DNA of 64,000 nucleotides from an uncultured Bacilli bacterium (GCA_944355355.1 CALVQE010000002.1:704-64703), one strand, 5' to 3'; positions 39,234 to 60,780 are shown, counted from the first letter of the stretch. A program made the numbers and translations. Notes: generated by a model from the letters alone, not told the origin.

Positions 39234-39260
39234 TTGCTGAAAAAAAGGAAGGTAGGTTTT

Positions 39261-43320: not shown

Positions 43321-43327
43321 GATTTTT

Positions 43328-43945
43328 ATGCAAAATATAGTAATTACAATTGGTCGTGAATTTGGAAGTGGGGGAAAATACATTGGTTCTGAAGTAGCCA
43401 AACGTCTAAACATTCCCTTTTACGATAAAGAAATATTAGTGAAAACTTATGAACGAAACAACATAAATTATTCTAAACTAGAAGAATTTGATGAAACAAA
43501 GAAAAATAGTATCTTAAACATCTTGGATATTCTAAGAAATGATGCTTACAATGAAGTAGCTCTAAACGAAGTTTATCAAGACTTAATTCGCAAGACAATT
43601 GAGGACTTAGCTTTATCTTCTTGTGTTATCTTAGGAAGAAATTCTAATAATATTTTAAAAAATAAAAAGAATGCCATTCATATTTTCTTATATTCTAAAG
43701 ATCTTGAATTTAAGATTCAAAGAAAAATGGAAGTAGAAGGCTTAACACATAAAGAAGCACATGAAAAGCTAAAGAAAATTGATAAACAACGAGAAGAATA
43801 CTATGAGTTCTTAAATCCTAATGAAAATTGGAAAGACAAAGATCATTATGATTTATGTATAGACACCGGTAAAATAGGTGTTGAAAAAACAATTGAACTC
43901 ATTGTAAATTTATATCAAATTCTAAGTCAAGAAGAAGCTGTCTAA
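43328..43945 (+). CDS. Cytidylate kinase-like family protein
   Basis: MQNIVITIGREFGSGGKYIGSEVAKRLNIPFYDKEIL is typical of this P-loop-like family. Confidence 0.75.
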   Translation: MQNIVITIGREFGSGGKYIGSEVAKRLNIPFYDKEILVKTYERNNINYSKLEEFDETKKNSILNILDILRNDAYNEVALNEVYQDLIRKTIEDLALSSCVILGRNSNNILKNKKNAIHIFLYSKDLEFKIQRKMEVEGLTHKEAHEKLKKIDKQREEYYEFLNPNENWKDKDHYDLCIDTGKIGVEKTIELIVNLYQILSQEEAV

Positions 43946-43960
43946 AAAGCTTCTTTTTTT
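43931..43960 (+). terminator. Rho-independent terminator
   Basis: gaagc...gcttc hairpin followed by a T7 run. Confidence 0.6.
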
Positions 43961-44028
43961 GACTTTTAGAAGAAAAGCATAGTCAAGCTTTCTTCTTTTG
44001 TGCTACAATTAACATAGGTGATGCAAAA

Positions 44029-44946: not shown

Positions 44947-45806
44947 GAAAAATCTTTTTAAGCCTAGTTAGCTTAAGTCTAACTCTTGGACTTCTTTATA
45001 TTACGATTTCAGGATTGTTAAAATACAATTTACAAGAAGAACAATTTCTAAACTACCTCAAAGATAACGACATTAGCTTTTTACTCCGGACTCAATTTGG
45101 TGAAGAGAGCTCCTTTTATAAAGACTTAACTGCAGGACTTTCCCAAATTCAAATTCCCGAAGAAACCATCATTCCCATTCTAAACAGTGGACCCACCAAA
45201 GAATTTCTAGCTACATATATTTACAATGCCGTCTTATCCTATATATACGACGATGAACAACCAAAAGTGACCTCTGAAGAAATTCTCTCTCTTTTAGAAA
45301 GCAACTTTCCTGTTATTGAGCAAACCCTAGGTGAAGAACTAACTGAAGTCAAACAAAGCGAAATCTTAAACTATGCTAATATTTACATGGAAGATTTACA
45401 AGGTGCTTTACCGACCATAAATGAAGTCATTCAAAAAGTGGGGCTTACTTCTTTAGAAAACTTAAAAATTCTTATTCGTATCATGCAAAATAAAACCATC
45501 TTTATTTTAGTTAGTCTAGGATCACTTCTATTCCTTGGCTTACTAATCTTATTTACCCACGTAGCAAAAACCGATGAACACTATATTAAACGGAGTATTA
45601 CTTTATATGTAGCTATTTTGCTTGTTGTAGAAGTCTTAATTGGCACCATTTTAAAAGACTACTTTATGAGCGAAATTGCAATTATAAAAGTTTTCATCAA
45701 CTATCTATGTAATATCTTGGCCAAAGAAATCTGGTTATTTGTTTTCCTTGGCTTAGGAATTACACTTCTAATCAATCTCAATAATAAAAGGAGGAAAAAA
45801 ATATGA
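44940..45806 (+). CDS. Membrane protein, unknown function
   Basis: N-terminal TM plus a C-terminal three-to-four-TM block. Overlaps its neighbours. Confidence 0.5.
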   Translation: MVRKIFLSLVSLSLTLGLLYITISGLLKYNLQEEQFLNYLKDNDISFLLRTQFGEESSFYKDLTAGLSQIQIPEETIIPILNSGPTKEFLATYIYNAVLSYIYDDEQPKVTSEEILSLLESNFPVIEQTLGEELTEVKQSEILNYANIYMEDLQGALPTINEVIQKVGLTSLENLKILIRIMQNKTIFILVSLGSLLFLGLLILFTHVAKTDEHYIKRSITLYVAILLVVEVLIGTILKDYFMSEIAIIKVFINYLCNILAKEIWLFVFLGLGITLLINLNNKRRKKI

Positions 45807-46132
45807 GAAAATATATGGAAGAATATACCGAAGAAGTTTTAACAAAATTAAAAGGAAAAGTGACCAAAGAAGATCTAGAAGAGTTAAAACTCAAAATCAC
45901 ATACTTTCAACATGAACGACTAATTCATTTACTTGTCACCATTGCTTTTGCTATTTTTACAGTAATTTTTCTATGTTTGGGCATGATCTCTTATGTCTTC
46001 TTAATTCCCTTTACAAGCTTCATTATCTTTTTAATTTTCTACATCTTGCATTATTTCTTTTTAGAAAATCATGTTCAATATTTATACCGTTTGTATGACG
46101 AGATGAAAGCAAAATTGAAAGGTGGCAATTGA
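45803..46132 (+). CDS. Small two-TM membrane protein
   Basis: ATGA overlap. Hydrophobic core LIHLLVTIAFAIFTVIFLCLGMISYVFLIPFTSFIIFLIFYIL. Confidence 0.5.
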   Translation: MRKYMEEYTEEVLTKLKGKVTKEDLEELKLKITYFQHERLIHLLVTIAFAIFTVIFLCLGMISYVFLIPFTSFIIFLIFYILHYFFLENHVQYLYRLYDEMKAKLKGGN

Positions 46133-46437
46133 TAAAGAAGAAATCTGAGTTACGCAAAGAAAGCATATGATAAAAAGGACATAAGATATACCTAAACTAT
46201 GCTTGTTTATTTGTAAGTGACGGCGTGAATCAAAACAATTCAAGTCCATTTACAATTGTTTTACATTTGACTTTTTCAAGAGTTTTTAGTAGTATACAAG
46301 CTAATATTTTTTGTATTGATTATCTTTATATTGAAAATCATCCAAAAAATGTTATAATGTCTATAGAAAGCAATCTGTTTGTCTTTCTGTATGCTGTATG
46401 TATTATGTTTTTTGTTGCATAATATATTTTAGGACAT

Positions 46438-46474
46438 AAAAAAAGAGATACATTAGCCGTTAAGTGCTTATCTC
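46438..46474 (-). terminator. Rho-independent terminator (minus strand)
   Basis: On the minus strand: gagataagcacttaacggctaatgtatctc followed by a T7 run. Confidence 0.6.
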
Positions 46475-46632
46475 CGCCTTATGTTTCTATGTTTCGAGTG
46501 AAGAGCACCTTTCAAAGTCGCTATGACCAAGATTAGGTGCTCCTTTTTTAATGCTTCTGGTTGTGATCTCTTTGTAGAATATATAAAATCACTATTAAAG
46601 CAATTAAATATTCCAAATTGATCCTCTCTCAT
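46468..46632 (-). CDS. Candidate small ORF (54 aa) with its SD held in a hairpin
   Basis: ggaggtg SD (46645-46639) 6 nt upstream of ATG 46632. The SD lies in the 3' arm of the hairpin cctccgt / acggagg (46671-46641). Below the ORF-track cutoff. The stop lies inside the minus-strand terminator stem. Confidence 0.3.
   Translation of the reverse strand: MREDQFGIFNCFNSDFIYSTKRSQPEALKKEHLILVIATLKGALHSKHRNIRRR
46503..46550 (+). terminator. Rho-independent terminator (plus strand), convergent with the previous one
   Basis: gagcacct (46503-46510) / aggtgctc (46535-46542) followed by cttttttaa. Confidence 0.6.
46548..46616 (-). CDS. Alternative candidate ORF: 22-aa hydrophobic peptide (type I toxin-like)
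   Basis: TTG start 5 nt after agagga. (M)EYLIALIVILYILQRDHNQKH is a single TM helix with a charged tail. Overlaps the other candidate in a different frame. Confidence 0.3.
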   Translation of the reverse strand: MEYLIALIVILYILQRDHNQKH

Positions 46633-47044
46633 AGGCATCACCTCCGTTCTATCGCCATTGGATGACGGAGGAAAAGCACCTAACCAATGTATCTCGGATT
46701 AATTATATTATATAAAGTATAAAATAGCTAGATTTTTTGGTCTTGAATTGTTTGAAAAAAATGAAACATATAAAGCTTACAGTTTTGATAAGCATAAGTA
46801 TGTATTACGATACTTAAAAAAATAATATAACGAAACCTTATCTTGATAAAGTATAGCAAAGATGCTTCAATTCGCAAAATTCATAAATTGTTAAAAAATC
46901 TAGGAAAATAAAGGGATAAAAATATTTTGAATGTAAAAAAACTGAAAATTTCACTAATTTTTATTTTAAACCAGAAGCCAATCATACTAAATTTTCATTA
47001 ACTTATATAAGTTTTTAGTACATATTTGTTCATAAAATCCCTTA

Positions 47045-47265
47045 TTTTTTCTTAAAAACTAAATTTTGCGAATTGAAGAGCAAAGATGAAATCATACTTG
47101 CCAAACAAAAATGAATCTGATACAATGAAGGTGTTGATGAAGATGTTGCCTTACAACCAACGGAGTCAAATCGCTTATCGGCGTTACAGAAAGAGGTAGT
47201 TAATTCTATGAAATAGGGTGGTACCACGGGTATATTGCTCGTCCCTAGGTCATAGAATTTTTTTC
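47045..47265 (+). promoter_or_regulatory. T-box leader, Tyr specifier (UAC)
   Basis: UAC followed by A at 47152-47155. T-box aatagggtggtaccacgg (47212-47229). Terminator ctatgaaataggg / ccctaggtcatag followed by a T7 run. Confidence 0.75.
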
Positions 47266-47290
47266 ATTAAAAAGAGAAAGTGAGGATATT

Positions 47291-47635: not shown

Positions 47636-48846
47636 CATTATATGAAGATTTGATGTGGCGTGGATTAATTAAAGACGTATCCACTCCAAATTTAAAAGAT
47701 ATTTTAGATAATCAAAAAATAACCTTTTATTGGGGAACCGACCCCTCAGCTGATAGCCTTCACTTAGGACACTACAGTTCTTTAGTGACAGCCAAAAGAT
47801 TAAGTAACTATGGCCATCATCCAATTTTATTGATTGGAGGATCAACCGGTTTAATTGGCGATCCACGTCCAACTGCCGAAAGAGAAATAATCTCCAAAGA
47901 AGCCGTTTTAAAAAATGCTGCTGGTATTAAAGCGCAAGTAGATAAAATCTTTGAAGGCAAAGCCAAAATCGTCAACAATTACGATTGGACCAAAGACGTA
48001 AGTCTCTTAGATTTCTTGCGAGACATTGGTAAATACATCAATGTAAACTATATGCTAGATAAAGATATCATTAAAAGAAGATTAGAAACCGGAATTACAT
48101 ATGCAGAGTTTTCTTATACACTTTTACAAGGCTATGATTTTCTTCATCTGTTTGAACACGAAAATTGTGTTTTACAAGCAGAAGGTTCAGATCAATGGGG
48201 AAATATTACAACCGGTATAGAACTCATTAAGAAGAAAACTGGAAAAGAAGCTTATGGTTTTACCATGCCATTAATTGTCGATAAAAATGGCAAAAAGTTT
48301 GGTAAAAGTGAAGGCAATGCTTTATGGTTAGACAAAGAAAAAACAAGTTCCTATGAACTATATCAATACCTAGTAAATACTGATGATGCTCTTGTTATTG
48401 ACTATTTAAAAGTATTTACCTTCTTAACTAAAGAAGAAATTGAAGAAATTGAAAGAAAACAAAAAGAAACACCAGAACTAAGAATTGCCCAAAAACGTCT
48501 AGCTGAAGAAATTATAACCGATTTACATGGTAAAGAAGAGTGGGAAAGAGCCTTAGAAATATCTGAATGCTTGTTTACGGGCAAAATAACTTCTTTAACA
48601 GACAAAGAAATAGAAACAGCTTTCAAAGGCGTTCCAATTCTAGCTTACCAAGATAAAAACTTATTAGATTTTTTAGTTGATGAACATGTTGCCTCATCCA
48701 AAAGAGAAGCAAGAGAATTTTTATCTGGCAATGCCATTACGATTAATGGAGAAATCGTGAATGAGGAAGATTATCATTTAGATGACACTCGTACTTATAA
48801 CGTTCTAAGAAGAGGCAAGAAAAAGTATTATTTAATCAAAAAGTAA
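47632..48846 (+). CDS. tyrS: Tyrosine--tRNA ligase
   Basis: HIGH motif (HLGHY), KMSKS variant (KFGKS), C-terminal S4-like domain. Confidence 0.95.
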   Translation: MTLYEDLMWRGLIKDVSTPNLKDILDNQKITFYWGTDPSADSLHLGHYSSLVTAKRLSNYGHHPILLIGGSTGLIGDPRPTAEREIISKEAVLKNAAGIKAQVDKIFEGKAKIVNNYDWTKDVSLLDFLRDIGKYINVNYMLDKDIIKRRLETGITYAEFSYTLLQGYDFLHLFEHENCVLQAEGSDQWGNITTGIELIKKKTGKEAYGFTMPLIVDKNGKKFGKSEGNALWLDKEKTSSYELYQYLVNTDDALVIDYLKVFTFLTKEEIEEIERKQKETPELRIAQKRLAEEIITDLHGKEEWERALEISECLFTGKITSLTDKEIETAFKGVPILAYQDKNLLDFLVDEHVASSKREAREFLSGNAITINGEIVNEEDYHLDDTRTYNVLRRGKKKYYLIKK

Positions 48847-48877
48847 GATGAACATCCAGTCATCTTCTTTTTTTTGG
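48845..48877 (+). terminator. Rho-independent terminator
   Basis: aagatga acatccag tcatctt followed by a T-run. Confidence 0.7.
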
Positions 48878-48908
48878 CATATTTCTATCTTAGAAGGAGA
48901 AAGTTTTT

Positions 48909-50363
48909 ATGAATTTAAATGAATTTCAAAAAAGTGGAGTGGGAACTATTAACGTTACCGACTCTTTAAAAGCGCCCTTATTGGGCCTAAAAATTGAGTT
49001 AAATGAAAACTCAAGTATTCCACAGACAAATGATTTAATCATTTCTGTCTCAAAAGGAGAGGATACCAAAGAAATAAAGTATCCGTTGACGTCACCTTTA
49101 TACCGAATAAATTCGGTAAGTGATGTATTTCTTATTGAACCAAGTTTTGAAGGCAACAAAGTGTCTATGAAAGCTAAAGTAAGTCGCAAAATTGGTATTC
49201 AACATGTTGAAAGTGAAATCCACGTTGGAGACGATCTCAGTGGTAAAACTATTAGAACAATTGAAGGACTAAGTGCGATTAAATCACTCGTAAATGAATC
49301 ACTAATTACAACAAATAATTACGAGATAAAAGTGCAAGCTCGTGATATTTATGATAATGGAGTTTTAAAAGCCACAAGATATGAATTAATAGAAACCCAA
49401 AATAATGCGATATTATACTGGGAAGAAGATTCTGATACAATTGGTATAACTACTTCTGGATTTTCTTCGTATATATTACCAGCTGACTTTGGAGTTGTTA
49501 CAGCTATACATAGTAGTGCAAATACCTGTTTAGTATTTTATAATACAAATACAAATATTTTAGACGAAGAAACAATAGAAGAGCTAGATTACCAGCCTAT
49601 TATTCTATTTGAAGGAGAAAATAGTATTTCATGTAACTATGAGAACGCTTCGATTGAACTTGTTTATCCTAAAAATAATGACTTAACGAAGTATTTTCTC
49701 GCAAATACCTATACCTATAGTCTAAACAATGAAGATAAATTCTTGACTTTAGATGATCTATATTTTAAAAACTGTTTCACAGAAATTGAAGAAAATATTA
49801 TCAATGCAATTTTTAATAAATTAACGATAAAATGTCTTGATTCGACAACAGGAAATTTTTCTTTAGACTGTGATGGAAACTTAGTTGTTAATAGCATTAC
49901 AACCAAAGTTCAAGATGAAGCGTCATCGGATATAGACTTTGATCAAATTTATCCGATAGGTTCTATTTACATGAGTGTAAATAATGTGAATCCAAGTACT
50001 TTATTTGGTGGTACTTGGCAGGCCTTTGCATCAGGAAGAACAATTGTAGGTGTAGACGCATCTCAAACAGAATTTAATACAGTTCAAAAAGCTGGTGGTT
50101 CTAAAATGCAGACCTTGACTGAAGCTCAATTGCCTTTAGTAGGAGGACAAATTGCAATTCACGGTGGGGAAAGCGGATCGAATTTATGGCAACCAACAGG
50201 CGTCTTCTCTTCGTCAGCAGTTAATGCAGGAAAGTATAAAACCATGAATCAAGCTTCTGGAGCATCTTCTATTGGTGTGTTAGATTTCCGATTTGGTAGT
50301 GGAGAAGCACATAATAACTTACCACCATATATTACAGTGTATATGTGGAAAAGGGTAGCATAA
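48909..50363 (+). CDS. Phage tail-fibre/baseplate-like protein with a C-terminal tail-collar-type domain (MdpB/COG4675-like)
   Basis: C-terminus IYPIGSIYMSVNNVNPSTLFGGTWQAF...GGSKMQTLTEAQLP...GEAHNNLPPYITVYMWKR matches the tail-collar signature (HNN.PPY..VY.W.R). The N-terminal 330 aa are unrecognised. Strong RBS gaaggag. Confidence 0.7.
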   Translation: MNLNEFQKSGVGTINVTDSLKAPLLGLKIELNENSSIPQTNDLIISVSKGEDTKEIKYPLTSPLYRINSVSDVFLIEPSFEGNKVSMKAKVSRKIGIQHVESEIHVGDDLSGKTIRTIEGLSAIKSLVNESLITTNNYEIKVQARDIYDNGVLKATRYELIETQNNAILYWEEDSDTIGITTSGFSSYILPADFGVVTAIHSSANTCLVFYNTNTNILDEETIEELDYQPIILFEGENSISCNYENASIELVYPKNNDLTKYFLANTYTYSLNNEDKFLTLDDLYFKNCFTEIEENIINAIFNKLTIKCLDSTTGNFSLDCDGNLVVNSITTKVQDEASSDIDFDQIYPIGSIYMSVNNVNPSTLFGGTWQAFASGRTIVGVDASQTEFNTVQKAGGSKMQTLTEAQLPLVGGQIAIHGGESGSNLWQPTGVFSSSAVNAGKYKTMNQASGASSIGVLDFRFGSGEAHNNLPPYITVYMWKRVA

Positions 50364-50373
50364 GGTGATTTCT

Positions 50374-53300
50374 ATGAAAGAAATTATTTCCCTTAGAAAA
50401 CCCAGAGAAAAACATTTTCTAAATGAAGATGGCACATTCACAGTGCAAATGTATGATCATGATATTCATTATTTAGCAAATGGTGAATATAAAGAAATCG
50501 ACAATTCATTAATAGAATTGGATTCTTGTTATCAAACGAGTTCTAATGCATTTATTGTTTCTTTTGCAAAACAAAAAAATCAAGAATTGCTTAAAATAGA
50601 AAAGGATAATCATTATTTAAAATTTTTTCTGGATACAAATCAAACTTTTAAATTATTGGCTCAAAAGTATTCAATAACATATCAAGATATTTTAAAAGAT
50701 ATAGACATAAAGTATTCTTTAAAAAACAATCAAATAAAGGACACTATATGGATAAATAAACCAACAGAAGATTTACCCAAAATAAAATATATTATTGAAA
50801 CAGATTTGAAATTAATCTTAAAAAACAACTCTATTTTTATATATGATGGTGATAAGTTTATTTCTAAAATAGAACCACCAACATTGATGGATAGCCAAAA
50901 GAATAAGTACAATATCGTTTACAATTTAGTGGAATCTGAATCGGGATACGTTTTAACCTTTAAATTTGAATCAAATATATTTCATAATCGAGAACTATAT
51001 CCTTTTATAATAGATCCAACGATTACAAATTCAGAAGAAAAAACAGTTTATGATACTTATATTTATTCTGGAGAAGAAAATAAAAATTACAATTTGGAAG
51101 ATTCGTTGCATGTTGGAGTAAATGAATCAAATAAAATATATAGATCATTAATAAAGTTTACATTGCCAACCATAGGTACTGGATATGAAATCGTTGATGC
51201 TACGGCATCTTTGGTAAGTCATGTAAGTGATTTTGTTGCCTTAAATTCTATTTACACCCATCAAACATTAGAAGCGCATCAGATCAATACAGAATGGAAT
51301 GAGGAAAGTGCCACATGGAATACAATGCATAATAAATATAATGAGCACATTGAAGATTACTTTCAGGCTTATAAAACTGAATATGACGCACCAAATAATA
51401 CCTATAACTTAAAAACAACTTCATTTAATATCACAAATATAGTAAAAAAGTGGTATGCTGGTGAAGCAAACAATGGTGTTTTATTGAAATTAGAAGATGA
51501 AATATATGGCGAAAATAGTGAACACATTTTTTATTCTAAAAACAATACTATCACGGAAACTAATGATGATATAGAAGATCCAAAACCATACCTCATCATT
51601 CGTTATAAAAACTTTAACGGACTAGAAGACTATATGACTTATCAAACAATCGATTTTCAAAACGGCAAAGGATACGTAAACAATTTAACAGGAAATTTAA
51701 CAACCGTATTTCATGTGAATCAAACAATAGGTGGGAAATTCCCTGTTAATTTAAATCTTATTTATAATAGTAACGATGCCGTTTTAAAGAAAAATATAGG
51801 TTTAGGTTTAGGTTATCGTTGGAATTTTTCTCAAACTATTGAGGAAATAACAATAGGAGAAGAACCATATTTGGCCTATATTGATGCCGATGGTACAACG
51901 CATTATTTTTATCAGTCAGATGAACATACATATCAAGACGAAGATGGATTAAATCTTACTATAAGTAAGGATAATTCTACATATGTTATGACGGATGCTT
52001 ATAAAAATAAAAAAATCTTTGAAAAAAAAGAGAATACTTATTATCTGGTTAAGATGATTGATACTTATCAAAATGAAGTTCATTTAGAATATGGCGAAAA
52101 TAATCGTTTGATTAAAATCACTGATGCTAATAATGAAACAATAAATATTTCGTATGGAATAATAAAAATCACAACAACAAGTTCTTATACGACAAGTACC
52201 TTAAATAGACCACTTATAAAAATTACTGATTTAATAACCAAAACAGGTACAACCGTATTTTCTTACAACTCATCAAATTTAATCGATAATATAACAGATG
52301 AAAACGGCTTGAAAACAGAATTTGACTATTATAATAATAGCCCTTATCGAATGAAGAAAATAACCGAAAAAAGTCTTCAGGATACAACCGGAAATAGTTT
52401 GGAATTTTTCTATTCTTTCCTTGTAACAAAAGTAGTCAATCAAAAAAATCAAATTTTGACTTATGCTTTTAATGAACAAGGAAATACCATAAGTGTAACA
52501 AATCTAGATGAATCCTTAGATTTGAAAAATGCTTATGGAACAGAAAATATTTATGTTCAAAATAAATTAGCTTTAAATATTCCTTTAACAAAATATGTAA
52601 AAAATTTATTTGAAGATCCAAGTTTTGAAAATAAAACGGGTACAATTATCTATGATGTGGGTGTTATAGATACTACAAACGCTAGAAGTGGTCAAAAGTG
52701 TGTTCGGACAAATGGTTATGAAATAGAAATTCCTTTACCAATGGTAGAAACAGCAGGATATTATACCTTCAGTGGCTATTTCAAACACACAAGCGCCATG
52801 GAAATAAGCTTGCACAGTTCTTCCACAAGTATAACAGAAACGAAACATTATTTGAAAGCAGATGAATATCAAAGATATTTTTTGACGGCTCATTTAGAAG
52901 CAAATACGCCGTATTATATAAACGTTTTTCCTGTAAATAACGCAACGATTTATATGGACGACTTTCAATTTGAAAGCGGTCAGGTAGCAAATTACTTTAA
53001 TTTAATTAATAATTCAGATTTCAGCAATGGTATGGAAGGATATGAAAGTGCTGTGTTTAGTTTATCTGGCGAAGAAGTCGTAAACGATGATTCAGTAGTA
53101 ACAATAGCAAATAATCAAAAAGCATATCAAATGAATTGTAAATCAAAATTAAGTAAAAGTTTAACAAAACGATTAAATATTGAAGGAAAAAAAGGAGATA
53201 CATATCGTCTATCCTTCTGGTATAAAAACGAAGGGTTAAGAGAAGGAACAATGGCTAGTGGTAATATTGCTTTACTAGGGTTTAGTTATAAAGTCGAAGT

Positions 53301-56300
53301 GCCTCATGGTGTACCAACATACGGTTTAAACTGTCATGCAACTGAATGGCAATATTTTGAACGAATTATCGTGGCAGAAGAGGATTACTCAAGTATTCTA
53401 TTAAGTATTATGGCACAATTTAATGTGAATAAATTGTATATTACAAACCTTTACCTTGTTAAAGATTTTGGCGGTAGTTCATATACTTATGATGAAAATG
53501 GTAATCTTATATCAGCTACGGATACCTCTAATTCTACAAATACATTTCAATATGATTCCAACAATCAATTAGTAAGTAATTTTTCTCCTAAGGGTAACCA
53601 TTTTCAATTTGAATATGATAATAATGATCCGGAACAGTTGAGACAAGGAATTTCGTCAAAAGGAATAGCCAATCGTCTTTACTATGATGAAAATGGAAAT
53701 CCTATACAAACCATTATTAAAAATGTTAAAAATATTAAGGATTTTACAAAAGAATACTTTTATATTCGTAAAAAAGCAACAGACAAATATTTATTTTCTG
53801 ATTTCCATGGTAATATACCTGTTTTAAAAGACTTTGAATGTAACCTAAGTAAATTTCGACTGGAAAGTGATGAAGATAATTACTATTATATAAAAACAGA
53901 TCTTATGCCTTATTATTTTGCCTATCGTGAAAGCATTAGTGAAAAGGTCGTTCTTACTAAGAATAAAGAAGAAGCAAGCTTGTTTGAACTGATTGAAAAT
54001 AAAAACGGAAGTTATACTTTACGAATCAAAAAAGTTTACGCTAATGATTCAGGAGAACTAACTTATGATGCCTGTATTAGTTTTGATGAAAATGATAGTT
54101 TAATTATTGAAAATTATATTATGGATAATCCAGATCAAGAATTGTTTCTTGAAAGCGCCGAGACTCCATTATATATTGAATCTAAAGCTATTTATCAAAA
54201 TAACGGCAAATTTATCTCTAAAACAATAGATGCCTTAGATAAAGTGACAACTTATGATATTAATGAAATCACTGGTCTAACAAATTCCATCACAGATCCG
54301 TCGCAAACAACTACGTATTACGAATATAATCAAAAAGAGCAAATATCAAAAATTAAGAAAAATGAAAAAGAGATACTTTACGCATATAATACTCAAAACC
54401 TACTAGAAAAAATTACAAGCAATAACAAAGAATATACATTTACCTATGATGAATTTCTAAATCGTCTTCAAACAAAAATAAACAATCAAATTCTAGCAAC
54501 CAATAACTATGATGAGAACAATGGTGGATTAACTCGTATTGATTATGGAAACAATACATCTATATCCTATACTTACGATGAATTTAATCGTTTGAAAACA
54601 AACATAAGAGATGATTCTATTTACAGTTATTACTACGATAATATGAATAATTTAAGCAAAATTACTTCAAATAATGAAACATATGAATACAGTTATGATT
54701 TTGCAGGCAGACTAATTAGTTATTTATATAACCAAAAAGACTATTTCACAGGAAAAAATAGTATTGACTATGAGTATGATATTAATAGCAATGTTACAAA
54801 AAAAAGTCTCAATAATTTGATTGTAACAGAATATGATTACGATGAAGACGACGAAATTGTGAAAGTCACCATTGGGGATATAAACTTAAATTATCAAAGA
54901 GATTATTTAGGAAGACTTACTTCAAAAAACATTAACAACCAACTTCCAGTAGAATATACTTATTATACAAATGGAAACAAGACATCATTAATTCTTAAAA
55001 GCATGAAAATAGAAGATGATTTATATGAATACTATTATGATGATGTCTATAATTTATCAAAAGTATTTAAAAACCACAGTCTATTATATGAATATCAATA
55101 TGATGCTTTTCATGAATTACTGAGTGAACACAATTATGAAACAAAAAGAACTTATCGCTATGTTTATGATGGAGCCGGAAATATTCTTTCAAAGAAAGAA
55201 TATGAACTAAACACTTCAAATTTACTACACGAAGACACATATACTTATAACAATACAACTTGGGAAGATCAACTAACCAAATTTAATGATACTTCTATAA
55301 CTTATGATGAAATTGGAAATCCGATTTCTATTGGCAATGTGACTTTATCTTGGAAAAACGGAAGAGAGTTAAGATCATTAATAGCAGACAATTTAAATGT
55401 GAATTATTTTTACAATAAAGATGGAATTCGTCGTAAAAAAATAGTAAATAATATCGAAACAGAATACTTTACAGAAAACGGAGCTATATTAATTGAAAAA
55501 AGTGGAAATAATGTGATATATTATTTACGAGATGACAATAATAATTTATTAGGATTTATGTATAATGGGACAACCTATTATTATCAAAAAAACTTACAAG
55601 AAGACATTATTGGAATCTATAATAACAACTATGAACTAATTGCTAAATATCAATACGATGCTTGGGGCAAACTACTAAAAATTACAAATGCAAGTGGCGA
55701 AGAAATTACTGATACTAACCATATTGCTTATATCAATCCTTATCGTTATCGTTCATACTATTATGATTCAGAAACAAAACTATACTACTTAAACAGCAGA
55801 TATTACAATCCAGAATGGGGTAGATTTATTAATGCGGATAATTTAATATTGCAAAACACTGATACTATAATTAGTAATAATATGTATTTATATTGTGATA
55901 ATAATTGTGTTAATAAACTAGATCAGAATGGTCATCATATTTCTCGGACAACTTTGAGAATTTTAAAGGAATATTCATATGAAATTGTCAAGATCGATGA
56001 TAATGCAGCATATACGGAAATACAAATTGGAGAAAGTTATTATGTTGCTATCATTTCTGGTAATGCCATACATTTTGATTTTAATCAAAATCCAAAACTT
56101 ACTGATAATTCGTATACGATCGCTCATGCTCTATATAACGCATACACTGATTATTATGGAGAAAAGATGGTAGGTAGAACATTTGGTGGGCTTGAGTTGG
56201 AGTTAGGATTGCATGAGACGGCATATCGACTTGGAATAATGGAAGAAAATTCGAAAGTGGCTGATCTGGGAACGGTAAAAACCGATTCTAATGCAATTGT

Positions 56301-56451
56301 GTTCGAAATGGCAGCTTCAGTATCAAAACCAGTTTCAAAAGTGGTACAAGAAGAAACTAAAAATTATTGTCCCATGCCCAAGCGTATAAGTCCAAAGCGT
56401 TTAGTTCGATCATTTTTAGGATGGGTATCAAAATTATTTATGATAATTTAA
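50374..56451 (+). CDS. Rhs/YD-repeat polymorphic toxin (DNRLRE-type N-terminal domain, CBM-like inserts, Rhs shell, novel C-terminal toxin domain)
   Basis: Many YD repeats (YTYDENGNLIS, FQYDSNNQLVS, YSYDFAGRLIS...). The core ends with YRYRSYYYDSETKLYYLNSRYYNPEWGRFINADN...NMYLYCDNNCVNKLDQNGH, followed by a 170-aa unrecognised C-terminus. No signal peptide or LXG domain is evident. ATG 50374 follows aaggtga, 10 nt after the upstream stop. Confidence 0.9.
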   Translation: MKEIISLRKPREKHFLNEDGTFTVQMYDHDIHYLANGEYKEIDNSLIELDSCYQTSSNAFIVSFAKQKNQELLKIEKDNHYLKFFLDTNQTFKLLAQKYSITYQDILKDIDIKYSLKNNQIKDTIWINKPTEDLPKIKYIIETDLKLILKNNSIFIYDGDKFISKIEPPTLMDSQKNKYNIVYNLVESESGYVLTFKFESNIFHNRELYPFIIDPTITNSEEKTVYDTYIYSGEENKNYNLEDSLHVGVNESNKIYRSLIKFTLPTIGTGYEIVDATASLVSHVSDFVALNSIYTHQTLEAHQINTEWNEESATWNTMHNKYNEHIEDYFQAYKTEYDAPNNTYNLKTTSFNITNIVKKWYAGEANNGVLLKLEDEIYGENSEHIFYSKNNTITETNDDIEDPKPYLIIRYKNFNGLEDYMTYQTIDFQNGKGYVNNLTGNLTTVFHVNQTIGGKFPVNLNLIYNSNDAVLKKNIGLGLGYRWNFSQTIEEITIGEEPYLAYIDADGTTHYFYQSDEHTYQDEDGLNLTISKDNSTYVMTDAYKNKKIFEKKENTYYLVKMIDTYQNEVHLEYGENNRLIKITDANNETINISYGIIKITTTSSYTTSTLNRPLIKITDLITKTGTTVFSYNSSNLIDNITDENGLKTEFDYYNNSPYRMKKITEKSLQDTTGNSLEFFYSFLVTKVVNQKNQILTYAFNEQGNTISVTNLDESLDLKNAYGTENIYVQNKLALNIPLTKYVKNLFEDPSFENKTGTIIYDVGVIDTTNARSGQKCVRTNGYEIEIPLPMVETAGYYTFSGYFKHTSAMEISLHSSSTSITETKHYLKADEYQRYFLTAHLEANTPYYINVFPVNNATIYMDDFQFESGQVANYFNLINNSDFSNGMEGYESAVFSLSGEEVVNDDSVVTIANNQKAYQMNCKSKLSKSLTKRLNIEGKKGDTYRLSFWYKNEGLREGTMASGNIALLGFSYKVEVPHGVPTYGLNCHATEWQYFERIIVAEEDYSSILLSIMAQFNVNKLYITNLYLVKDFGGSSYTYDENGNLISATDTSNSTNTFQYDSNNQLVSNFSPKGNHFQFEYDNNDPEQLRQGISSKGIANRLYYDENGNPIQTIIKNVKNIKDFTKEYFYIRKKATDKYLFSDFHGNIPVLKDFECNLSKFRLESDEDNYYYIKTDLMPYYFAYRESISEKVVLTKNKEEASLFELIENKNGSYTLRIKKVYANDSGELTYDACISFDENDSLIIENYIMDNPDQELFLESAETPLYIESKAIYQNNGKFISKTIDALDKVTTYDINEITGLTNSITDPSQTTTYYEYNQKEQISKIKKNEKEILYAYNTQNLLEKITSNNKEYTFTYDEFLNRLQTKINNQILATNNYDENNGGLTRIDYGNNTSISYTYDEFNRLKTNIRDDSIYSYYYDNMNNLSKITSNNETYEYSYDFAGRLISYLYNQKDYFTGKNSIDYEYDINSNVTKKSLNNLIVTEYDYDEDDEIVKVTIGDINLNYQRDYLGRLTSKNINNQLPVEYTYYTNGNKTSLILKSMKIEDDLYEYYYDDVYNLSKVFKNHSLLYEYQYDAFHELLSEHNYETKRTYRYVYDGAGNILSKKEYELNTSNLLHEDTYTYNNTTWEDQLTKFNDTSITYDEIGNPISIGNVTLSWKNGRELRSLIADNLNVNYFYNKDGIRRKKIVNNIETEYFTENGAILIEKSGNNVIYYLRDDNNNLLGFMYNGTTYYYQKNLQEDIIGIYNNNYELIAKYQYDAWGKLLKITNASGEEITDTNHIAYINPYRYRSYYYDSETKLYYLNSRYYNPEWGRFINADNLILQNTDTIISNNMYLYCDNNCVNKLDQNGHHISRTTLRILKEYSYEIVKIDDNAAYTEIQIGESYYVAIISGNAIHFDFNQNPKLTDNSYTIAHALYNAYTDYYGEKMVGRTFGGLELELGLHETAYRLGIMEENSKVADLGTVKTDSNAIVFEMAASVSKPVSKVVQEETKNYCPMPKRISPKRLVRSFLGWVSKLFMII

Positions 56452-56474: not shown

Positions 56475-57140
56475 ATGAAAAATAAAAATTCTAAGGAAAG
56501 AAATAAATATACATTTCAAAGCAAGCTATATTATGTCATAGATATAGTTCTTGTGATATTTGCGTTAGCTCGTTACTATTTTTACCCTTTGCAAATTGGC
56601 TTTTCAATCAAAGGCGTCAATGTTTTAGTATTAGGGTTTACTATAATTTGGTTTTTTGTTCGTTTGAGTTCAATATTTAAAGAAAACAGAATCTCTTTAA
56701 AAACAATTAATATCGTCATAACTTGCTTTCTATTTATAACAATAGGTCGAGGTGTTTTTTGCGAATTTGTAAATAATGCAGTCTTTCCGGAATTTATTAG
56801 AGATATTTATGTTTTTCCAAATAGTACAAGCGAAAGATTTGTTGTGACTTCAAACATTGAAATTATTCCAACAGCTACTACTATTGTATATTATGAAAAA
56901 ACGTTGTTTCCCGGAATCACTTGTAAAACGGTTATAGATACATTTTCGGAAGAGATTCATATGGATACAAATACTGAATATACATTTAAATTTTATAAAG
57001 AATATTTTAAGAGTCAAAATTTAAATCTTAATTATGATAAATATATAGAGTATATGAATAATCAAGAAGATAAAGGATTTTGTAATCTCGATATAGCTAG
57101 AATGAATACTCAGAAAGAAATTCATTATTATATTAAATGA
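56475..57140 (+). CDS. Multi-TM membrane protein, candidate cognate immunity protein
   Basis: The first gene after the Rhs stop (23-nt gap, RBS aagagg). Three to four TM helices, then a soluble C-terminal part. Confidence 0.5.
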   Translation: MKNKNSKERNKYTFQSKLYYVIDIVLVIFALARYYFYPLQIGFSIKGVNVLVLGFTIIWFFVRLSSIFKENRISLKTINIVITCFLFITIGRGVFCEFVNNAVFPEFIRDIYVFPNSTSERFVVTSNIEIIPTATTIVYYEKTLFPGITCKTVIDTFSEEIHMDTNTEYTFKFYKEYFKSQNLNLNYDKYIEYMNNQEDKGFCNLDIARMNTQKEIHYYIK

Positions 57141-57155
57141 TTGGCGGAGGTATAA

Positions 57156-57890
57156 ATGGTAAGAAGATTTGAAGAACTTAAAACAGGAGATACATTCGCT
57201 TGGCAAATCACAACAGAAGAATACCCGGATTTTAAAAATAGATATTTAATAATAACCTATTATTATAATAAGTATTCTGAAAATGATCAGTGCAAAATAT
57301 TTAGGGTGAAAATAACAAAAACGGATAAAATACCTCAAAATATTGAAGAAATAAGTAAGTTAGAAAGTATTAAACTAGCTTATAATATTTATGATTTAGC
57401 CACTCAAGAATATAGTGAGGCTAAAGCCGTAAAACCGGACAAATATGGATATATTTATCAATATACAGTCGAAGTATTATGTAAACGTAAAACGATACCA
57501 AAACAAATGATTTATATAGGTAATTTTAAAATAAATGCCATTGAAAACGAGTTTTACTTTGCTAAAGGCCCTAGAAATCAATATCAAGCTTCATGGAAAT
57601 ATTTTGAGGAAAATATATTGCAATCCTATGTACTTTATAATCAAAAACAATTTATTGGTTACACTAAAGAAGGAAATAAAGAAATCTATGCCCGTCAGTT
57701 AGATTTTGAAAATTTTAGAAAACACTTAAAAAAATTAGGAGATGCTATTGATGGACCAAATGGCAACGAAGTGTTAAAAAAATTAGGCATTGATATTGAA
57801 AATGAGGTTCCTCTAGCAGACGCTTTAACTTATGTAGGACCGGATAAAGATGAAGGTATTAAAAAAAATCTTAGTGCTTTTATCAAATAA
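57156..57890 (+). CDS. 244-aa cassette protein, family A (divergent member)
   Basis: Shares GDTFA...YL(I/L)(I/L)T...KIT/LTKTxxIP...LTYVGPDKDEGIKK with the two other 244-aa ORFs. Confidence 0.6.
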   Translation: MVRRFEELKTGDTFAWQITTEEYPDFKNRYLIITYYYNKYSENDQCKIFRVKITKTDKIPQNIEEISKLESIKLAYNIYDLATQEYSEAKAVKPDKYGYIYQYTVEVLCKRKTIPKQMIYIGNFKINAIENEFYFAKGPRNQYQASWKYFEENILQSYVLYNQKQFIGYTKEGNKEIYARQLDFENFRKHLKKLGDAIDGPNGNEVLKKLGIDIENEVPLADALTYVGPDKDEGIKKNLSAFIK

Positions 57891-57912
57891 TTGACGGAGG
57901 AATAATATGGTA
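57826..57912 (+). repeat. Cassette junction repeat, type A (copy 1)
   Basis: cttatgtaggaccggataaagatgaaggtattaaaaaaaatcttagtgcttttatcaaataattgacggaggaataatatggta. Confidence 0.8.
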
Positions 57913-58641
57913 ACAAAAAATAAAAGATTATCAAAAAAGTGTGATATTGGAGATACATTTGCTATAGAAATAAAAAGTGATAAATATCCAGAGTATAATG
58001 GCAAATATCTTATTCTAACAAAAAGTAAGTATGGTGATTTTGTTTGGGATATAAAAGGTTATGCGTCTTTCTATGTTAAACTTACTAAGACAAAGGAAAT
58101 TCCAAAAACCCAAGAAGAGTTAGATGAACTTGAATATATTATTAGTTCTGCTAATGCTCCAGTACTTGAAGAAAGGTATGTTGCCCCAGGTTATGAAATG
58201 CCTATACCAGATCAATATGGCTTAATTTATTCTTATTCGTTTTCTTACATGAATTTGAGTAGAGAAACTATAAATTCTGCATGTTATCTTGGAAATTATC
58301 CTGTGAAATATCCTCAGAATGAATACATTTCTTCTACCGGATTTAGAGGAGAAAGTAGCATTGATAAATGGACATTTCCTGATAAAACTCTTAGTCATTA
58401 TAAATGGTATAATTTAAAACAAAACGATCTTTATACTAAAGAGGGAAATGAATTATTTCATCAAAGAACTCAAAGTGAGGCCCAATTTTACAAAGAAATG
58501 TTAGAAAGAGAAAAACTAATCTTTGGCCATGAAGAAGAATATTTAGCATGGATGGGAATTGATACATCACAAGAAGAGGAAGAAGATAGCCTTACTTATG
58601 TAGGACCTGATAAAGATGAAGGTACTAAGAGAAAATCTTAG
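57907..58641 (+). CDS. 244-aa cassette protein, family A (paralog 2)
   Basis: About 90% identical by eye to 60046-60780. Confidence 0.65.
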   Translation: MVTKNKRLSKKCDIGDTFAIEIKSDKYPEYNGKYLILTKSKYGDFVWDIKGYASFYVKLTKTKEIPKTQEELDELEYIISSANAPVLEERYVAPGYEMPIPDQYGLIYSYSFSYMNLSRETINSACYLGNYPVKYPQNEYISSTGFRGESSIDKWTFPDKTLSHYKWYNLKQNDLYTKEGNELFHQRTQSEAQFYKEMLEREKLIFGHEEEYLAWMGIDTSQEEEEDSLTYVGPDKDEGTKRKS

Positions 58642-58695
58642 TGCTTTTTTCTTAAACATCAGGTATACTTTTGATAGAAAGAAGTATTCAAAATG
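58591..58695 (+). repeat. Cassette junction repeat, type B (copy 1)
   Basis: ...gatgaaggtactaagagaaaatcttagtgcttttttcttaaacatcaggtatacttttgatagaaagaagta...atg. Confidence 0.8.
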
Positions 58696-59175
58696 AAAAA
58701 GAAGAAAAAGATTTTAATTATTAGCATTGTATTAGCCGTAATTGGGATTATAGTTTATTATTTGCATGAAGATACTATTGTATTTAAAATAAACTATGGT
58801 GTATCTATTCCACAATCTATAGAGTATAACGATATTTTACCCGGAGACGGATATGCTGACTTGCCTATGTATAATCAATTAGTATTTCGAAAACAATTCA
58901 CTCAAAAACATCTAAGTTCTTTTAAAAAAATTGATCAAAATAATAAAGAAAAACTTATCCAACTTATTGAAGTATATTACAATAATTTGGATTGTGAAGG
59001 CCAAGTGCTTTTCAAAGAATCATTTCCTCCGGAAAGTACAAATGAGAACAACTACTTTTTTGTGAAAATGACTGAAAAAAGGTTATCAATTCTAATATAT
59101 GATAAGAATAATAAAACTCTTCATGAACTATCAACTGTATCTCATCAAGGATTCAATATTAATTTGGATTGGTAA
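58693..59175 (+). CDS. N-terminally anchored 160-aa cassette protein (family B1)
   Basis: MKKKKKILIISIVLAVIGIIVYYL anchor. Preceded by a type-B junction repeat. Confidence 0.55.
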   Translation: MKKKKKILIISIVLAVIGIIVYYLHEDTIVFKINYGVSIPQSIEYNDILPGDGYADLPMYNQLVFRKQFTQKHLSSFKKIDQNNKEKLIQLIEVYYNNLDCEGQVLFKESFPPESTNENNYFFVKMTEKRLSILIYDKNNKTLHELSTVSHQGFNINLDW

Positions 59176-59189
59176 ATGGCTTCCAATAA

Positions 59190-59263
59190 GTACTAAGAAA
59201 AAATCTTAGTGCTTTTTTCTTAAACATCAGGTATACTTTTGTTAGAAAGAAGTAAGCATAATG
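59190..59263 (+). repeat. Cassette junction repeat, type B (copy 2)
   Basis: gtactaagaaaaaatcttagtgcttttttcttaaacatcaggtatacttttgttagaaagaagta...atg. Present even though the preceding gene is not a family-A member. Confidence 0.8.
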
Positions 59264-60013
59264 AAAAAGAAGAAAAAAAGAAATTATTATAATTTAATTG
59301 TTCATGCTATTAGAATTTTTAGTATTATGGGCTGTGTAACAGGATTTTCGCTTATATTTGTTACTGACGAAAAATATACAAGATATCTTATCATTATGCT
59401 TTTTACTTTTTTTGTCCTAATGTATATCTCTATAATATTAGCTGATAAATATAAGAACAAAATTACTATAGATATAGAAAAACCAAGAGCTCCTCATACC
59501 TATAAGATAATAGATGAATATCAAATGAAACAAAACATCAAAGATAAACTAAACATGATGAATTATCAAGTAATACCTGATGTTTTAACTGATACAACAT
59601 TATATGGCATGAAACAATATAAATGGTATTATGCTAAAGGTCATAAAAATGTATTTAATCTATGGGCTGAATTTGATATTCCTGAATTTACTAAAGAAAC
59701 ATCAGATTATCTAATTACACAAAGAGAGAATATTCAAAAGAAGCTTAAACAAAAAGAAAGATGTTTTTGTATCATCTTTCTCATAAGAGTAGAAAAGAAA
59801 AACAAAGAGTTATCCAAGTATTTAAAAAGAAGAACAGTTGAGGGATATCAAAACTATGGATTAATGGCAATCCTTATAGAAGAAGAACAAAGAATATATG
59901 TACCATTACCAGAATGGGCAGATGTTGATTGTTATTTGATCCGTAGAAGATTTGAAAAGATATTAAAGGGAAGTGTAATAAAAGAAAAGAGAGATACTAA
60001 GAAAAACTCTTAA
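59261..60013 (+). CDS. Two-TM 250-aa cassette protein (family B2)
   Basis: MKKKKKRNYY..., two TM helices. Preceded by a type-B junction repeat. Its last codons and stop lie inside a type-A junction repeat. Confidence 0.55.
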   Translation: MKKKKKRNYYNLIVHAIRIFSIMGCVTGFSLIFVTDEKYTRYLIIMLFTFFVLMYISIILADKYKNKITIDIEKPRAPHTYKIIDEYQMKQNIKDKLNMMNYQVIPDVLTDTTLYGMKQYKWYYAKGHKNVFNLWAEFDIPEFTKETSDYLITQRENIQKKLKQKERCFCIIFLIRVEKKNKELSKYLKRRTVEGYQNYGLMAILIEEEQRIYVPLPEWADVDCYLIRRRFEKILKGSVIKEKRDTKKNS

Positions 60014-60051
60014 TGCTTTTATCAAATAACTGACGGAGGAATAATATGGTA
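59996..60051 (+). repeat. Cassette junction repeat, type A (copy 2)
   Basis: actaagaaaaactcttaatgcttttatcaaataactgacggaggaataatatggta. Confidence 0.8.
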
Positions 60052-60780
60052 GCAAAAAATAAAAGATTATCAAAAAAATGTGATATTGGAGATACATTTG
60101 CTATAGAAATAAAAAGTGATAAATATCCAGAGTATAATGGCAAATATCTTATCCTAACAAAAAGCAAGTATGGTGATTTTGTTTGGGATATAAAAGAAAG
60201 AATTTCCTTTTACATTAAACTTACTAAGACAAAGGAAATTCCTAAAACCCAAGAAGAGTTAGATAAACTTGAATATGTTATTAGTTCTGCTAAGGCTCCA
60301 GTACTTGAAGAAAGGTATGTTGCCCCAGGTTATGAAATGCCTATACCAGATCAATATGGCTTGATATATTCCTATTCTTTTTCTTACATGAATTTGAGTA
60401 GAGAAACTATAAATTCTGCATGTTATCTTGGGAATTATCCTGTGAAATATCCTCAGAATGAATACATTTCTTCTACTGGATTTAGAGGAGAGGGGAGAAT
60501 AAATAAATGGACATTTCCTGATGAAATTATTGATTGCTATAATTTGTATAATTTAAAACAAAACGATCTTTATACTAAAGAGGGAAATGAATTATTTCAT
60601 CAAAGATCTCAAAGTGAGGCCCAATTTTATAAAGAGATGCTAGAAAGAGAAAAACTAATCTTTGGCCATGAAGAAGAATATTTAGCATGGATGGGAATTA
60701 ATACATCACAAGAAGAGGAAGAAGATAGCCTTACTTATGTAGGACCGGATAAAGATGAAGGTATTAAGAAAAAAACTTAG
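60046..60780 (+). CDS. 244-aa cassette protein, family A (paralog 3)
   Basis: Near-duplicate of 57907-58641. Confidence 0.65.
   Translation: MVAKNKRLSKKCDIGDTFAIEIKSDKYPEYNGKYLILTKSKYGDFVWDIKERISFYIKLTKTKEIPKTQEELDKLEYVISSAKAPVLEERYVAPGYEMPIPDQYGLIYSYSFSYMNLSRETINSACYLGNYPVKYPQNEYISSTGFRGEGRINKWTFPDEIIDCYNLYNLKQNDLYTKEGNELFHQRSQSEAQFYKEMLEREKLIFGHEEEYLAWMGINTSQEEEEDSLTYVGPDKDEGIKKKT

Follow-up and report, generated by a model that had tools for sequence, protein, structure and literature searches.

In a 64,000-nucleotide (nt) stretch of DNA from an uncultured Bacilli bacterium (GCA_944355355.1 CALVQE010000002.1:704-64703; hereafter the window), we identified a gene encoding a phage-fibre-like protein immediately upstream of a gene encoding a leaderless Rhs/YD polymorphic toxin, and our comparative analysis revealed that this neighbourhood is conserved, in unrelated contexts, in about 60 species-level genomes. 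The fibre-like protein and its family are here labelled TC. An earlier note on this DNA had described a 484-amino-acid (aa) protein behind the tyrS terminator and, 10 nt further on, an Rhs protein of ~2,025 aa, and both open reading frames (ORFs) were found as stated. TC (484 aa, no signal peptide; ORF, Pfam, and hydropathy) occupies positions 48909-50363 and Rhs (2025 aa from its ATG; ORF, Pfam, and NCBIfam) positions 50374-56451, both on the plus strand. We propose, at about even odds, that the pair constitutes a phage-derived Rhs bacteriocin that would be released by lysis or by a holin and would use TC as its receptor-binding subunit.

The TC stop codon (TAA, 50361-50363) and the Rhs start codon (ATG, 50374) are separated by exactly 10 nt. 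Because the Shine-Dalgarno sequence of the Rhs gene (AAGGTGA, 50362-50368, plus strand, 5 nt 5′ of the ATG) overlaps the TC stop codon, translation of the two genes could be coupled. The Shine-Dalgarno sequence of TC (GAAGGAG) was found at 48893-48899, 9 nt 5′ of its start. An alternative GTG at 50365 would lengthen Rhs by three residues; however, all homologues begin with MKE[IL]I.LRK, which confirmed ATG 50374 as the start, and no longer in-frame upstream extension is possible.

Conservation of the TC-Rhs pair

To analyze the neighbourhood, one genome per species was scanned, which yielded 79 loci; loci found later were added to the ORF and BLAST analysis. Membership in the TC family was defined as a match reaching upstream of the C-terminal head domain, and 71 loci qualified. 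In 65 of them, a gene of this Rhs subfamily starts between −41 and +508 nt downstream of TC, in line with the earlier suggestion that tail-collar and Rhs genes might be conserved neighbours across Bacillota. The alignment of the paired Rhs proteins with that of the window runs from residue 1 to about residue 1853, and the wider gaps between the two genes are filled by a coiled-coil ORF of ~120 aa (c8) or by a second copy of TC. Among the six remaining loci, two lie at a contig edge, two carry extra TC paralogues between the genes, one is rearranged so that Rhs comes first and TC follows 1.3 kb later (L059), and one holds an orphan TC. The converse search gave the same picture: a profile of the Rhs N-domain retrieved nine loci, and all eight with upstream sequence, which are metagenomic, showed one to three TC genes directly upstream of Rhs.

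The pair is kept across about 32 to 48% TC sequence identity and its chromosomal contexts differ (tyrS, the dnaK operon, rplU-rpmA, RNase Y, and yabP/yqfD); TC relatives with 41 to 44% identity, for example, are followed by an Rhs protein of ~2000 aa in the RNase Y, dnaK operon, and rplU-rpmA neighbourhoods. The carriers are uncultured gut Bacilli, namely Ca. Ventrenecus, Ca. Caccenecus, Ca. Onthocola, 'Mycoplasma sp. CAG:776', and 'Clostridium sp. CAG:1000', and the nearest relative of the window is a metagenome-assembled genome named 'Bacilli bacterium', with 95% TC identity. More than 1200 TC relatives were found in metagenomic proteins, and of the best 120 listed all but one carry the Gp10_C head domain.

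In at least 14 loci (L021-L026, L032-L042, L058, L183, and others), TC and Rhs are separated by the c8 ORF (~110 to 160 aa), which occupies the place that genes for tail-fibre assembly chaperones have in phages. This ORF matched no family, and neither tblastn nor a hidden Markov model (HMM) found it in the window.

Since prophage tail proteins of gut Clostridia often carry the head domain, TC might be a decaying prophage tail-fibre remnant that lies beside Rhs by chance. However, the pair has been retained at the above frequency, over the above range of identity, and in many contexts, and the ribosome-binding site of Rhs overlaps the TC stop. Furthermore, TC differs from its 95%-identical orthologue in L012 by 54 synonymous and 23 nonsynonymous codon differences, which indicates that it is under purifying selection. 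Finally, the 21 loci that matched through the head alone encode long (350 to 960 aa) tail proteins of Clostridia prophages that are followed by a holin gene and never by Rhs. These comparative data effectively refute chance adjacency, to which we assign a negligible probability, and indicate that the pairing is not fortuitous.

TC combines a phage-type head with a family-specific front part

The earlier note had recognized a tail-collar signature at the C terminus of TC. A head of the phage-fibre type is indeed present; however, it is of the gp10/gp12 type (Gp10_C) and not of the Pfam type 'Collar'. The Gp10_C head spans aa 344-483 (49938-50357, plus strand; Pfam PF21939, E value of 6.4e-30), and the TC family profile matched the solved C-terminal domain of T4 gp10 (2fkk, 4.9e-17). 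Matches to PHROG tail and tail-fibre families were also obtained. Domains of this type are seen in phage short-fibre, baseplate, and receptor-binding heads.

Three regions, all on the plus strand, precede the head. The N-terminal beta domain (aa 1-95, 48909-49193; AlphaFold2 [AF2] pLDDT of ~79 to 94) is conserved in the family, as the alignment motif MNL..DSL.APLL...EP.F.GNKV.MKA.V.R shows, and we propose it as a docking or adaptor part. The insertion that follows (aa ~96-215, 49194-49553) is, by alignment, confined to the clade of 465- to 540-aa TC proteins and is missing from homologues of 340 to 400 aa. The alignments further delimited a conserved middle and shaft region (aa 216-343, 49554-49937) with the fibre-like motifs LFEG.N.I.TNY...YPKN, DD[IL]YFK..FT, and NFSLD..GNL.VNSITT, and in P0019 and P0025 the middle/shaft motif occurs twice. 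TC is probably a trimeric fibre.

The head is all that TC shares with 814 phage records. Every match among 50,697 phage records was confined to aa 318-484, so that no homologue of the region before the head was found there. Likewise, 75 of 86 IMG/VR matches are restricted to the head, and no homologue of the region before it was found among the IMG/VR matches or the PHROGs. As far as these searches reach, the part in front of the head appears only beside Rhs and never in phages. A search with the TC N-terminal profile found this region fused almost exclusively to Gp10_C, with nearly all matches carrying that head and none carrying another head type. At loci with a short TC (~200 aa), the front parts are encoded by separate small ORFs, c14 for the aa 1-95 part and c32 for the middle. 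Some loci carry two or three TC heads in tandem, an arrangement that resembles systems with multiple receptor-binding proteins.

A Foldseek search of the full-length TC monomer model against the PDB gave no match at an E value of ≤0.001, and the sole recognizable match, well down the list, was T4 gp10 (E value of 0.14). The PBC1 protein gp19, encoded after the Rhs-like tail protein of that phage, was considered as a TC relative and rejected (hhalign probability of 0.4%).

The Rhs protein is a YD-repeat toxin that lacks a leader

The profile-HMM searches proposed in the earlier note matched Gp10_C in TC and DNRLRE_dom, the RHS repeats, and the Rhs core in the Rhs protein, whose parts all lie on the plus strand. 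An all-beta N-domain (aa 1-225, 50374-51048; profile search, AF2, and phage matches) is followed by a carbohydrate-binding module (CBM) of the DNRLRE/CBM96 type (aa 226-409, 51049-51600; NCBIfam NF033679, 7e-22). The Rhs shell (51676-55935; Pfam and NCBIfam) comprises a DUF6531 plug at aa 435-512 (a weak match), the YD repeats, and the Rhs-associated core. The repeat matches (PF05593, 1.7e-20; TIGR01643, 2e-19) identify a YD/RHS shell, and the core (Rhs_assc_core, TIGR03696, aa 1761-1854, 2.2e-16), whose motif is visible in the translation (RYYNPEWGRFINAD), precedes the toxin. Two less conserved insertions interrupt the YD repeats at aa ~750-850 and aa ~1150-1250, the first with subthreshold similarity to CBM_4_9. 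By these sequence features the protein is to be placed in the Rhs/YD polymorphic toxin family. In the AF2 model, aa 1-449 are all-beta (pLDDT of 85), and Foldseek aligned the DNRLRE part of this model with a chondroitin-sulfate-binding CBM (8wab; TM of 0.71 to 0.73).

The absence of a signal peptide, of LXG, and of a PrsW/T6SS-type N terminus, claimed in the earlier note, was borne out. Within the first 80 aa, the highest 15-residue Kyte-Doolittle mean reaches 0.55 in Rhs and 0.73 in TC, compared with 1.8 to 2.95 in Sec-bearing homologues, so that hydropathy indicated no signal peptide on either protein, and no membrane segment was found in either. Pfam and NCBIfam searches of Rhs returned no match to LXG, PAAR, or PrsW and none to a LysM or CWB wall-anchoring domain. 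The missing leader is a trait of the whole TC-paired Rhs subfamily, and homologues outside it carry Sec leaders. An exhaustive profile search with the N-domain found 6320 representative proteins; in the best ~110 (mostly ~2000 aa) the domain begins at residue 1 to 5, and in lower-scoring Rhs proteins it begins at aa 55 to 130, behind an obvious Sec signal peptide and a linker. As the N-domain follows a Sec leader in other Bacillota Rhs proteins, the TC-linked Rhs proteins are a leaderless offshoot of Sec-dependent WapA-like toxins.

A leaderless protein could also leave the cell through a dedicated secretion system encoded elsewhere, such as a type VIIb secretion system, in which case TC would be a chaperone or adaptor and not a receptor binder. 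In other Bacillota, Sec-less Rhs proteins beside EssC variants are predicted to be type VII secretion system (T7SS) substrates (PMC12704120). However, the N terminus studied here is all-beta and not a helical LXG or WXG N terminus, and a fibre of 484 aa with a head of the receptor-binding type is unlike known export adaptors. Small helical WXG100-like or Lap-like genes do not consistently flank the pair, the only small conserved ORF being c8, which sits after TC like a fibre chaperone. The earlier statement that the window holds no T7SS genes also stood, as no EssC-sized ORF exists in the 64 kb, and neither the window nor the flanks of relatives (±10 kb) contain essC, esxA, or Lap genes. From the two proteins and the DNA inspected, we consider export by an unlinked system very improbable.

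The N-module, that is, the N-domain together with the CBM, has relatives in phages. It matched a 1379-aa Siphoviridae protein (BFVD A0A8S5MN12, E value of 4e-23) and phage CBM96 proteins, and the N-domain matched gp18 of Bacillus phage PBC1 (28% identity, E value of 1e-12) and phrog_37549 (3e-8). In Bacillus phages PBC1, LY1, and LY5, the homologue is encoded just after the tape-measure gene, and there, too, CBM96 comes next. PBC1 gp18 (L091, 8983-12174) and vB_BceS_LY1 gp40 (L092, 7983-11180) are proteins of ~1060 aa that have the first ~225 aa and CBM96 in common with Gram-positive Rhs toxins. In GenBank, PBC1 gp18 was once labelled 'putative YD repeat protein', and Pfam finds no YD repeats in it. 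A Dit fold was considered for the Rhs N-domain because the phage homologue lies behind the tape-measure gene; it was rejected, as Foldseek gave no Dit (distal tail protein) match in the PDB and a weak one only in BFVD (E value of 4.8e-3, TMq of 0.15), and the DNRLRE part alone was matched, as a CBM.

The toxin tip varies together with the gene behind it

Along 44 full-length Rhs homologues, conservation peaks at aa 1-50 and within the core and falls from 0.66-0.69 to 0.12-0.24 past aa 1850. This drop and a swap between strains delimit a variable C-terminal toxin domain (aa 1855-2025, 55936-56448, plus strand): the core is 97% identical up to aa 1854 in L001, L004, and L012, which then continue with another tip and another first downstream gene. 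The protein thus has the strain-variable tip with a matching downstream gene that defines a polymorphic toxin. The tip itself matched nothing in Pfam or the PDB.

Directly 3′ of the toxin lies a gene for a 221-aa multipass membrane protein (56475-57140, plus strand), which matched nothing in Pfam, NCBIfam, or structure searches. Because strains with another tip have another gene at this position, it is likely to encode the cognate immunity protein. It is followed by an array of immunity-like or orphan ORFs (57156-60780, plus strand) of families that recur behind Rhs genes in relatives (c2 and c11 HMMs from related Rhs loci, 1e-72 to 5e-112). The array includes three paralogues of a 244-aa family, cluster c2 (57156-57890, 57907-58641, and 60046-60780), a 160-aa anchored protein (58693-59175), and a 250-aa membrane protein (59261-60013), all on the plus strand. 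The second and third c2 paralogues are nearly identical, the first has diverged, and longer members of the family carry an extra N-terminal domain beginning with MGVWGAG; the family may serve in immunity or another accessory role. Orphan toxin cassettes were found in relatives as well.

At the same tyrS locus, Rhs is split into two ORFs of 914 and 1111 aa in L001 and L004 and of 553 and 1470 aa in L012, with TC proteins that are 95 to 100% identical to that of the window. The split could reflect pseudogenization, an assembly error, or a real two-part variant. After aa 1854, the tip in these three strains contains a hydrophobic stretch followed by a putative GIY-YIG-like motif, as read by eye.

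Lysis, regulator, and prophage genes accompany the pair in relatives

Downstream of each Rhs gene, the 3 to 4 kb of inspected sequence contained lysis-type genes in at least 19 of ~38 loci, and an activator gene is adjacent in 24 of 57 loci. Clustering of neighbouring ORFs revealed a recurrent layout in which an optional sigma-70-region-4 protein or phrog_248-type activator is followed by TC, optional c8, Rhs, and immunity genes, and then by optional small membrane proteins, an M23/LysM endolysin (phrog_9066), a holin (Phage_holin_4_1, 1.6e-37), and an optional activator. One locus is also accompanied by a divergent CI-like repressor. In L185/L186 (18143-20507), TC, Rhs, immunity, M23/LysM, holin, and a 173-aa ORF form a compact island followed by the divergent CI-like repressor, and conjugation genes (PrgI, VirB4-like, and CHAP) lie a few kilobases upstream of the island. 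The holin, endolysin, and activator genes of relatives, the Sec-bearing relatives of the N-module, and the siphophage tail-tip homology were all absent from the earlier note.

The remark in that note that the locus is not simply a prophage tail module holds in the window and in most relatives. At L063 and L078, both distant from the window locus, an intact pair immediately follows a siphophage-like late operon that ends in a lysis cassette. This operon (L063, 4585-10582; L078, 102-10579) encodes a major tail protein, a putative tape measure, a 649-aa Gp10_C tail protein, a holin, and an endolysin, and the TC of both loci is of the short form. Since the place behind the lysis cassette is the usual one for phage cargo, this position suggests that the pair can travel as phage cargo and is itself of phage origin.

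These findings bear on a reading in which TC would be a side fibre and Rhs a toxin-bearing tail-tip protein of a virion or tailocin encoded elsewhere. The head of TC is that of a phage fibre, the Rhs N-module is homologous to the N terminus of the post-tape-measure gene product of PBC1, LY1, and LY5 and to the 1379-aa Siphoviridae protein, and in L063 and L078 the pair directly follows late genes. Nevertheless, in the window and in almost all relatives the ±10 kb around the pair are free of tube, tape-measure, portal, and capsid genes, and the position in L078 is that of cargo (a moron) and not of a structural gene. Moreover, aa 1-300 of TC, the would-be baseplate plug, have no homologue in the phage records, the IMG/VR matches, or the PHROGs, and the same N-module occurs in Sec-secreted Rhs proteins. 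We consider this reading quite unlikely.

The lysis genes likewise bear on the possibility that Rhs is exported nonclassically and displayed on the producer's surface, with TC anchoring it to the cell's own wall polymers in place of the LysM or wall-binding domains of WapA, for contact-dependent killing. In favour of such a display, the N-domain and DNRLRE module are the same as in Sec-exported, wall-associated WapA-type proteins (PMC12704120), and about half of the loci, including that of the window, show no adjacent lysis genes. On the other hand, TC and Rhs are both devoid of a leader and a membrane segment, no exporter gene is conserved next to the pair across related loci, and the frequent linkage with holins, endolysins, and phage-type activators argues for release. 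Surface display is thus unlikely in our view.

Proposed mechanism and points against it

We propose that TC and Rhs form one conserved toxin module of phage ancestry. Rhs would be a WapA-like YD-repeat cocoon that has lost its Sec leader and would therefore accumulate in the cytoplasm, where the downstream immunity protein would protect the producer. Release would occur through phage-style holin/endolysin action or through lysis of a fraction of the producer cells; in the genome of the window, the lysis cassette may reside elsewhere or release may occur by autolysis. Published examples show that the release of large leaderless toxins can depend on lysis or a holin, namely YenTc, which leaves the cell via a type 10 secretion system (PMC10847048, PMC10847046), and, among the large clostridial toxins (PMC6200909), TcdA/TcdB, released via the holin TcdE (PMC3369941). 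The conserved N-terminal and middle parts of TC would attach a trimeric fibre to Rhs, the gp10-type head would attach to competitor cells through a surface glycan or a wall polymer, and the carbohydrate-binding modules of Rhs would increase avidity. The C-terminal toxin would then be cleaved off and enter the target, presumably a bacterium, as the Gram-positive producers carry immunity genes.

Several points weigh against this proposal. Neither tblastn nor HMM searches found a homologue of the holin, endolysin, or activator in the 64 kb of the window, so no holin and peptidoglycan hydrolase are encoded with the toxin there; the closest relatives L001 and L012 lack such homologues too, and some other loci (e.g., L183) are likewise without lysis or activator genes. 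The orphan TC of L031 has no Rhs, and conversely the leaderless Rhs of L102, an IMG/VR contig, is preceded by an activator gene only, with no TC in 896 nt upstream. Sec-dependent homologues carry the Rhs N-module as well, so that this module is not a docking domain specific to TC, and the docking of TC to Rhs is something we infer. The AF2 monomer model of TC is of low confidence beyond aa 260, and the fold of the TC N-terminal part matched nothing in the PDB by Foldseek. All carriers are uncultured, and an Rhs toxin arriving from outside would have to cross a Gram-positive wall and membrane.

A more specific version of the proposal is that the pair builds a minimal, tail-less phage-derived particle, in which a trimeric fibre with a gp10-type head sits on a leaderless Rhs cocoon. 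Such a particle would be released by a holin or lysis and would intoxicate Gram-positive cells without a secretion system, and the module would be passed on as phage cargo and would occur widely among uncultured gut Bacilli. We regard this version as possible but less likely than not.

Comparison with known systems

In full-text searches of the literature, no account of Rhs toxins with a Gp10_C or tail-fibre partner was found, in agreement with the earlier view that the arrangement is undescribed, and the arrangement is also missing from a 2012 survey of the ways in which polymorphic toxins are trafficked. As judged from its sequence, the Rhs protein lacks defining features of the WapA-type, T7SS LXG, type VI secretion system (T6SS), and Tc systems. 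With WapA-type Rhs proteins (Bacillus subtilis WapA; Streptococcus suis WapA, PMC12704120) it shares the YD cocoon, the core, the swappable toxin, the downstream immunity genes, and the N-domain and DNRLRE module at its front. In contrast to them, it lacks both a Sec signal peptide and any LysM or wall-binding domain, and the paired subfamily has an obligatory upstream fibre-like partner and often holin, endolysin, and activator genes. Unlike T6SS Rhs effectors, it matched no PAAR domain, and its producers are monoderm Bacilli.

Tc (ABC) toxins, such as Yersinia entomophaga YenTc (PMC10847048, PMC10847046), also combine a leaderless Rhs-family cocoon with a separately encoded receptor-binding partner, and their release from a subpopulation through a phage-derived holin/endolysin cassette is the analogy that we propose for TC-Rhs. 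However, neither the pair nor its neighbours encode a TcA pentamer or translocation channel, TcB/SpvB, or a beta-propeller domain, and the partner is a fibre of ~350 to 490 aa with a gp10-type head. The pathogenicity locus of Clostridioides difficile (PaLoc; sigma factor TcdR, holin TcdE, and endolysin remnant TcdL; PMC3369941, PMC6200909) resembles the relatives' loci in that genes for a small sigma-70-region-4 regulator, a phage holin, and an endolysin-type protein flank that of a giant leaderless toxin. It differs in encoding a glucosyltransferase toxin instead of an Rhs cocoon; here, furthermore, the receptor binder is separate, immunity genes are present, and the window lacks the cassette.

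R- and F-type tailocins (diffocin and monocin; PMC11329794, PMC11830787) are phage-derived, released by lysis, targeted by receptor-binding proteins, and sometimes equipped with tandem receptor-binding genes, features that we propose for TC-Rhs as well. Unlike tailocins, the pair has no tube, sheath, tape-measure, or baseplate genes, and killing would be due to an enzymatic toxin with immunity and not to membrane puncture. The C-terminal ~140 to 165 aa of TC are homologous to T4 gp10/gp12 and to Gp10_C tail proteins of Gram-positive phages; its N-terminal 300 aa, in contrast, have no phage homologue, and its gene is chromosomal and tied to Rhs. In most relatives, as here, TC lies between housekeeping flanks and outside a phage or tailocin structural module, unlike a usual phage tail fibre. 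Finally, Rhs has the N-domain and CBM96/DNRLRE in the same order as PBC1 gp18 and vB_BceS_LY1 gp40, although the phage proteins run on into Ig and fn3 domains (about 1060 aa) and the Rhs module is fused to a cocoon.

Other features of the window

The toxin operon is set apart from tyrS, whose stop codon is at 48844-48846, by a terminator-like hairpin that starts right behind it and was read from the sequence (48845-48875, plus strand; stem AAGATGA/TCATCTT, 8-nt loop, and a run of eight T residues). A consensus terminator scan did not list this hairpin because its stem has only two G-C pairs. An Rfam scan of 43 to 64 kb returned nothing at the gathering score and thus no T-box upstream of tyrS, and a promoter scan in the AT-rich DNA of the window performed no better than on shuffled sequence.

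As the earlier note had observed, no phage structural, lysis, or integration genes lie within 10 kb of the pair; its flanks are housekeeping and immunity-like genes. Upstream of tyrS (39234-46132) are genes for MarR, two ABC exporters, a cytidylate-kinase-like protein, a membrane-anchored, C39-like peptidase (Peptidase_C39_2), and two small membrane proteins, followed by ~1.1 kb without a convincing ORF (46133-47290) and a 114-aa ORF that overlaps the tyrS start. C39-ABC bacteriocin exporters are also found upstream of the pair in L022, L044, and L089, with no evidence of a functional link. The clusters c18 and c28 upstream of several pairs, considered as tail genes, turned out to be a LysR regulator and an oxidoreductase. 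Downstream of the toxin, the immunity-like ORFs are followed by flavodoxin, DUF308, and PLD genes. The remainder of the window encodes housekeeping genes (polA, thrS, serS, tkt, and xfp) and two probable surface proteins, a DUF285 ('Mycoplasma' leucine-rich repeat) protein (5035-6789) and an 881-aa VWA/TSP3-repeat protein (16591-19236), which are consistent with a Mollicutes-like gut Bacilli lineage.

Implications

How Gram-positive Rhs/YD toxins leave the cell and reach their targets is unsettled even for WapA, and the TC-Rhs pair offers a compact and testable answer. The pair connects Rhs toxins with receptor-binding proteins of phages and, in many genomes, with phage lysis control as well. 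If the tail-less particle exists, Rhs toxins would have a fourth mode of delivery in addition to Sec/WapA, T6SS/T7SS, and Tc complexes. A two-protein system with a swappable head and a swappable tip would also suit programmable narrow-spectrum antibacterials. The leaderless Rhs proteins and their Sec-bearing sister families provide a natural experiment on how a toxin switches its export route, and a class of high-molecular-weight bacteriocins, represented by this module, may have been overlooked in abundant uncultured gut Bacilli.

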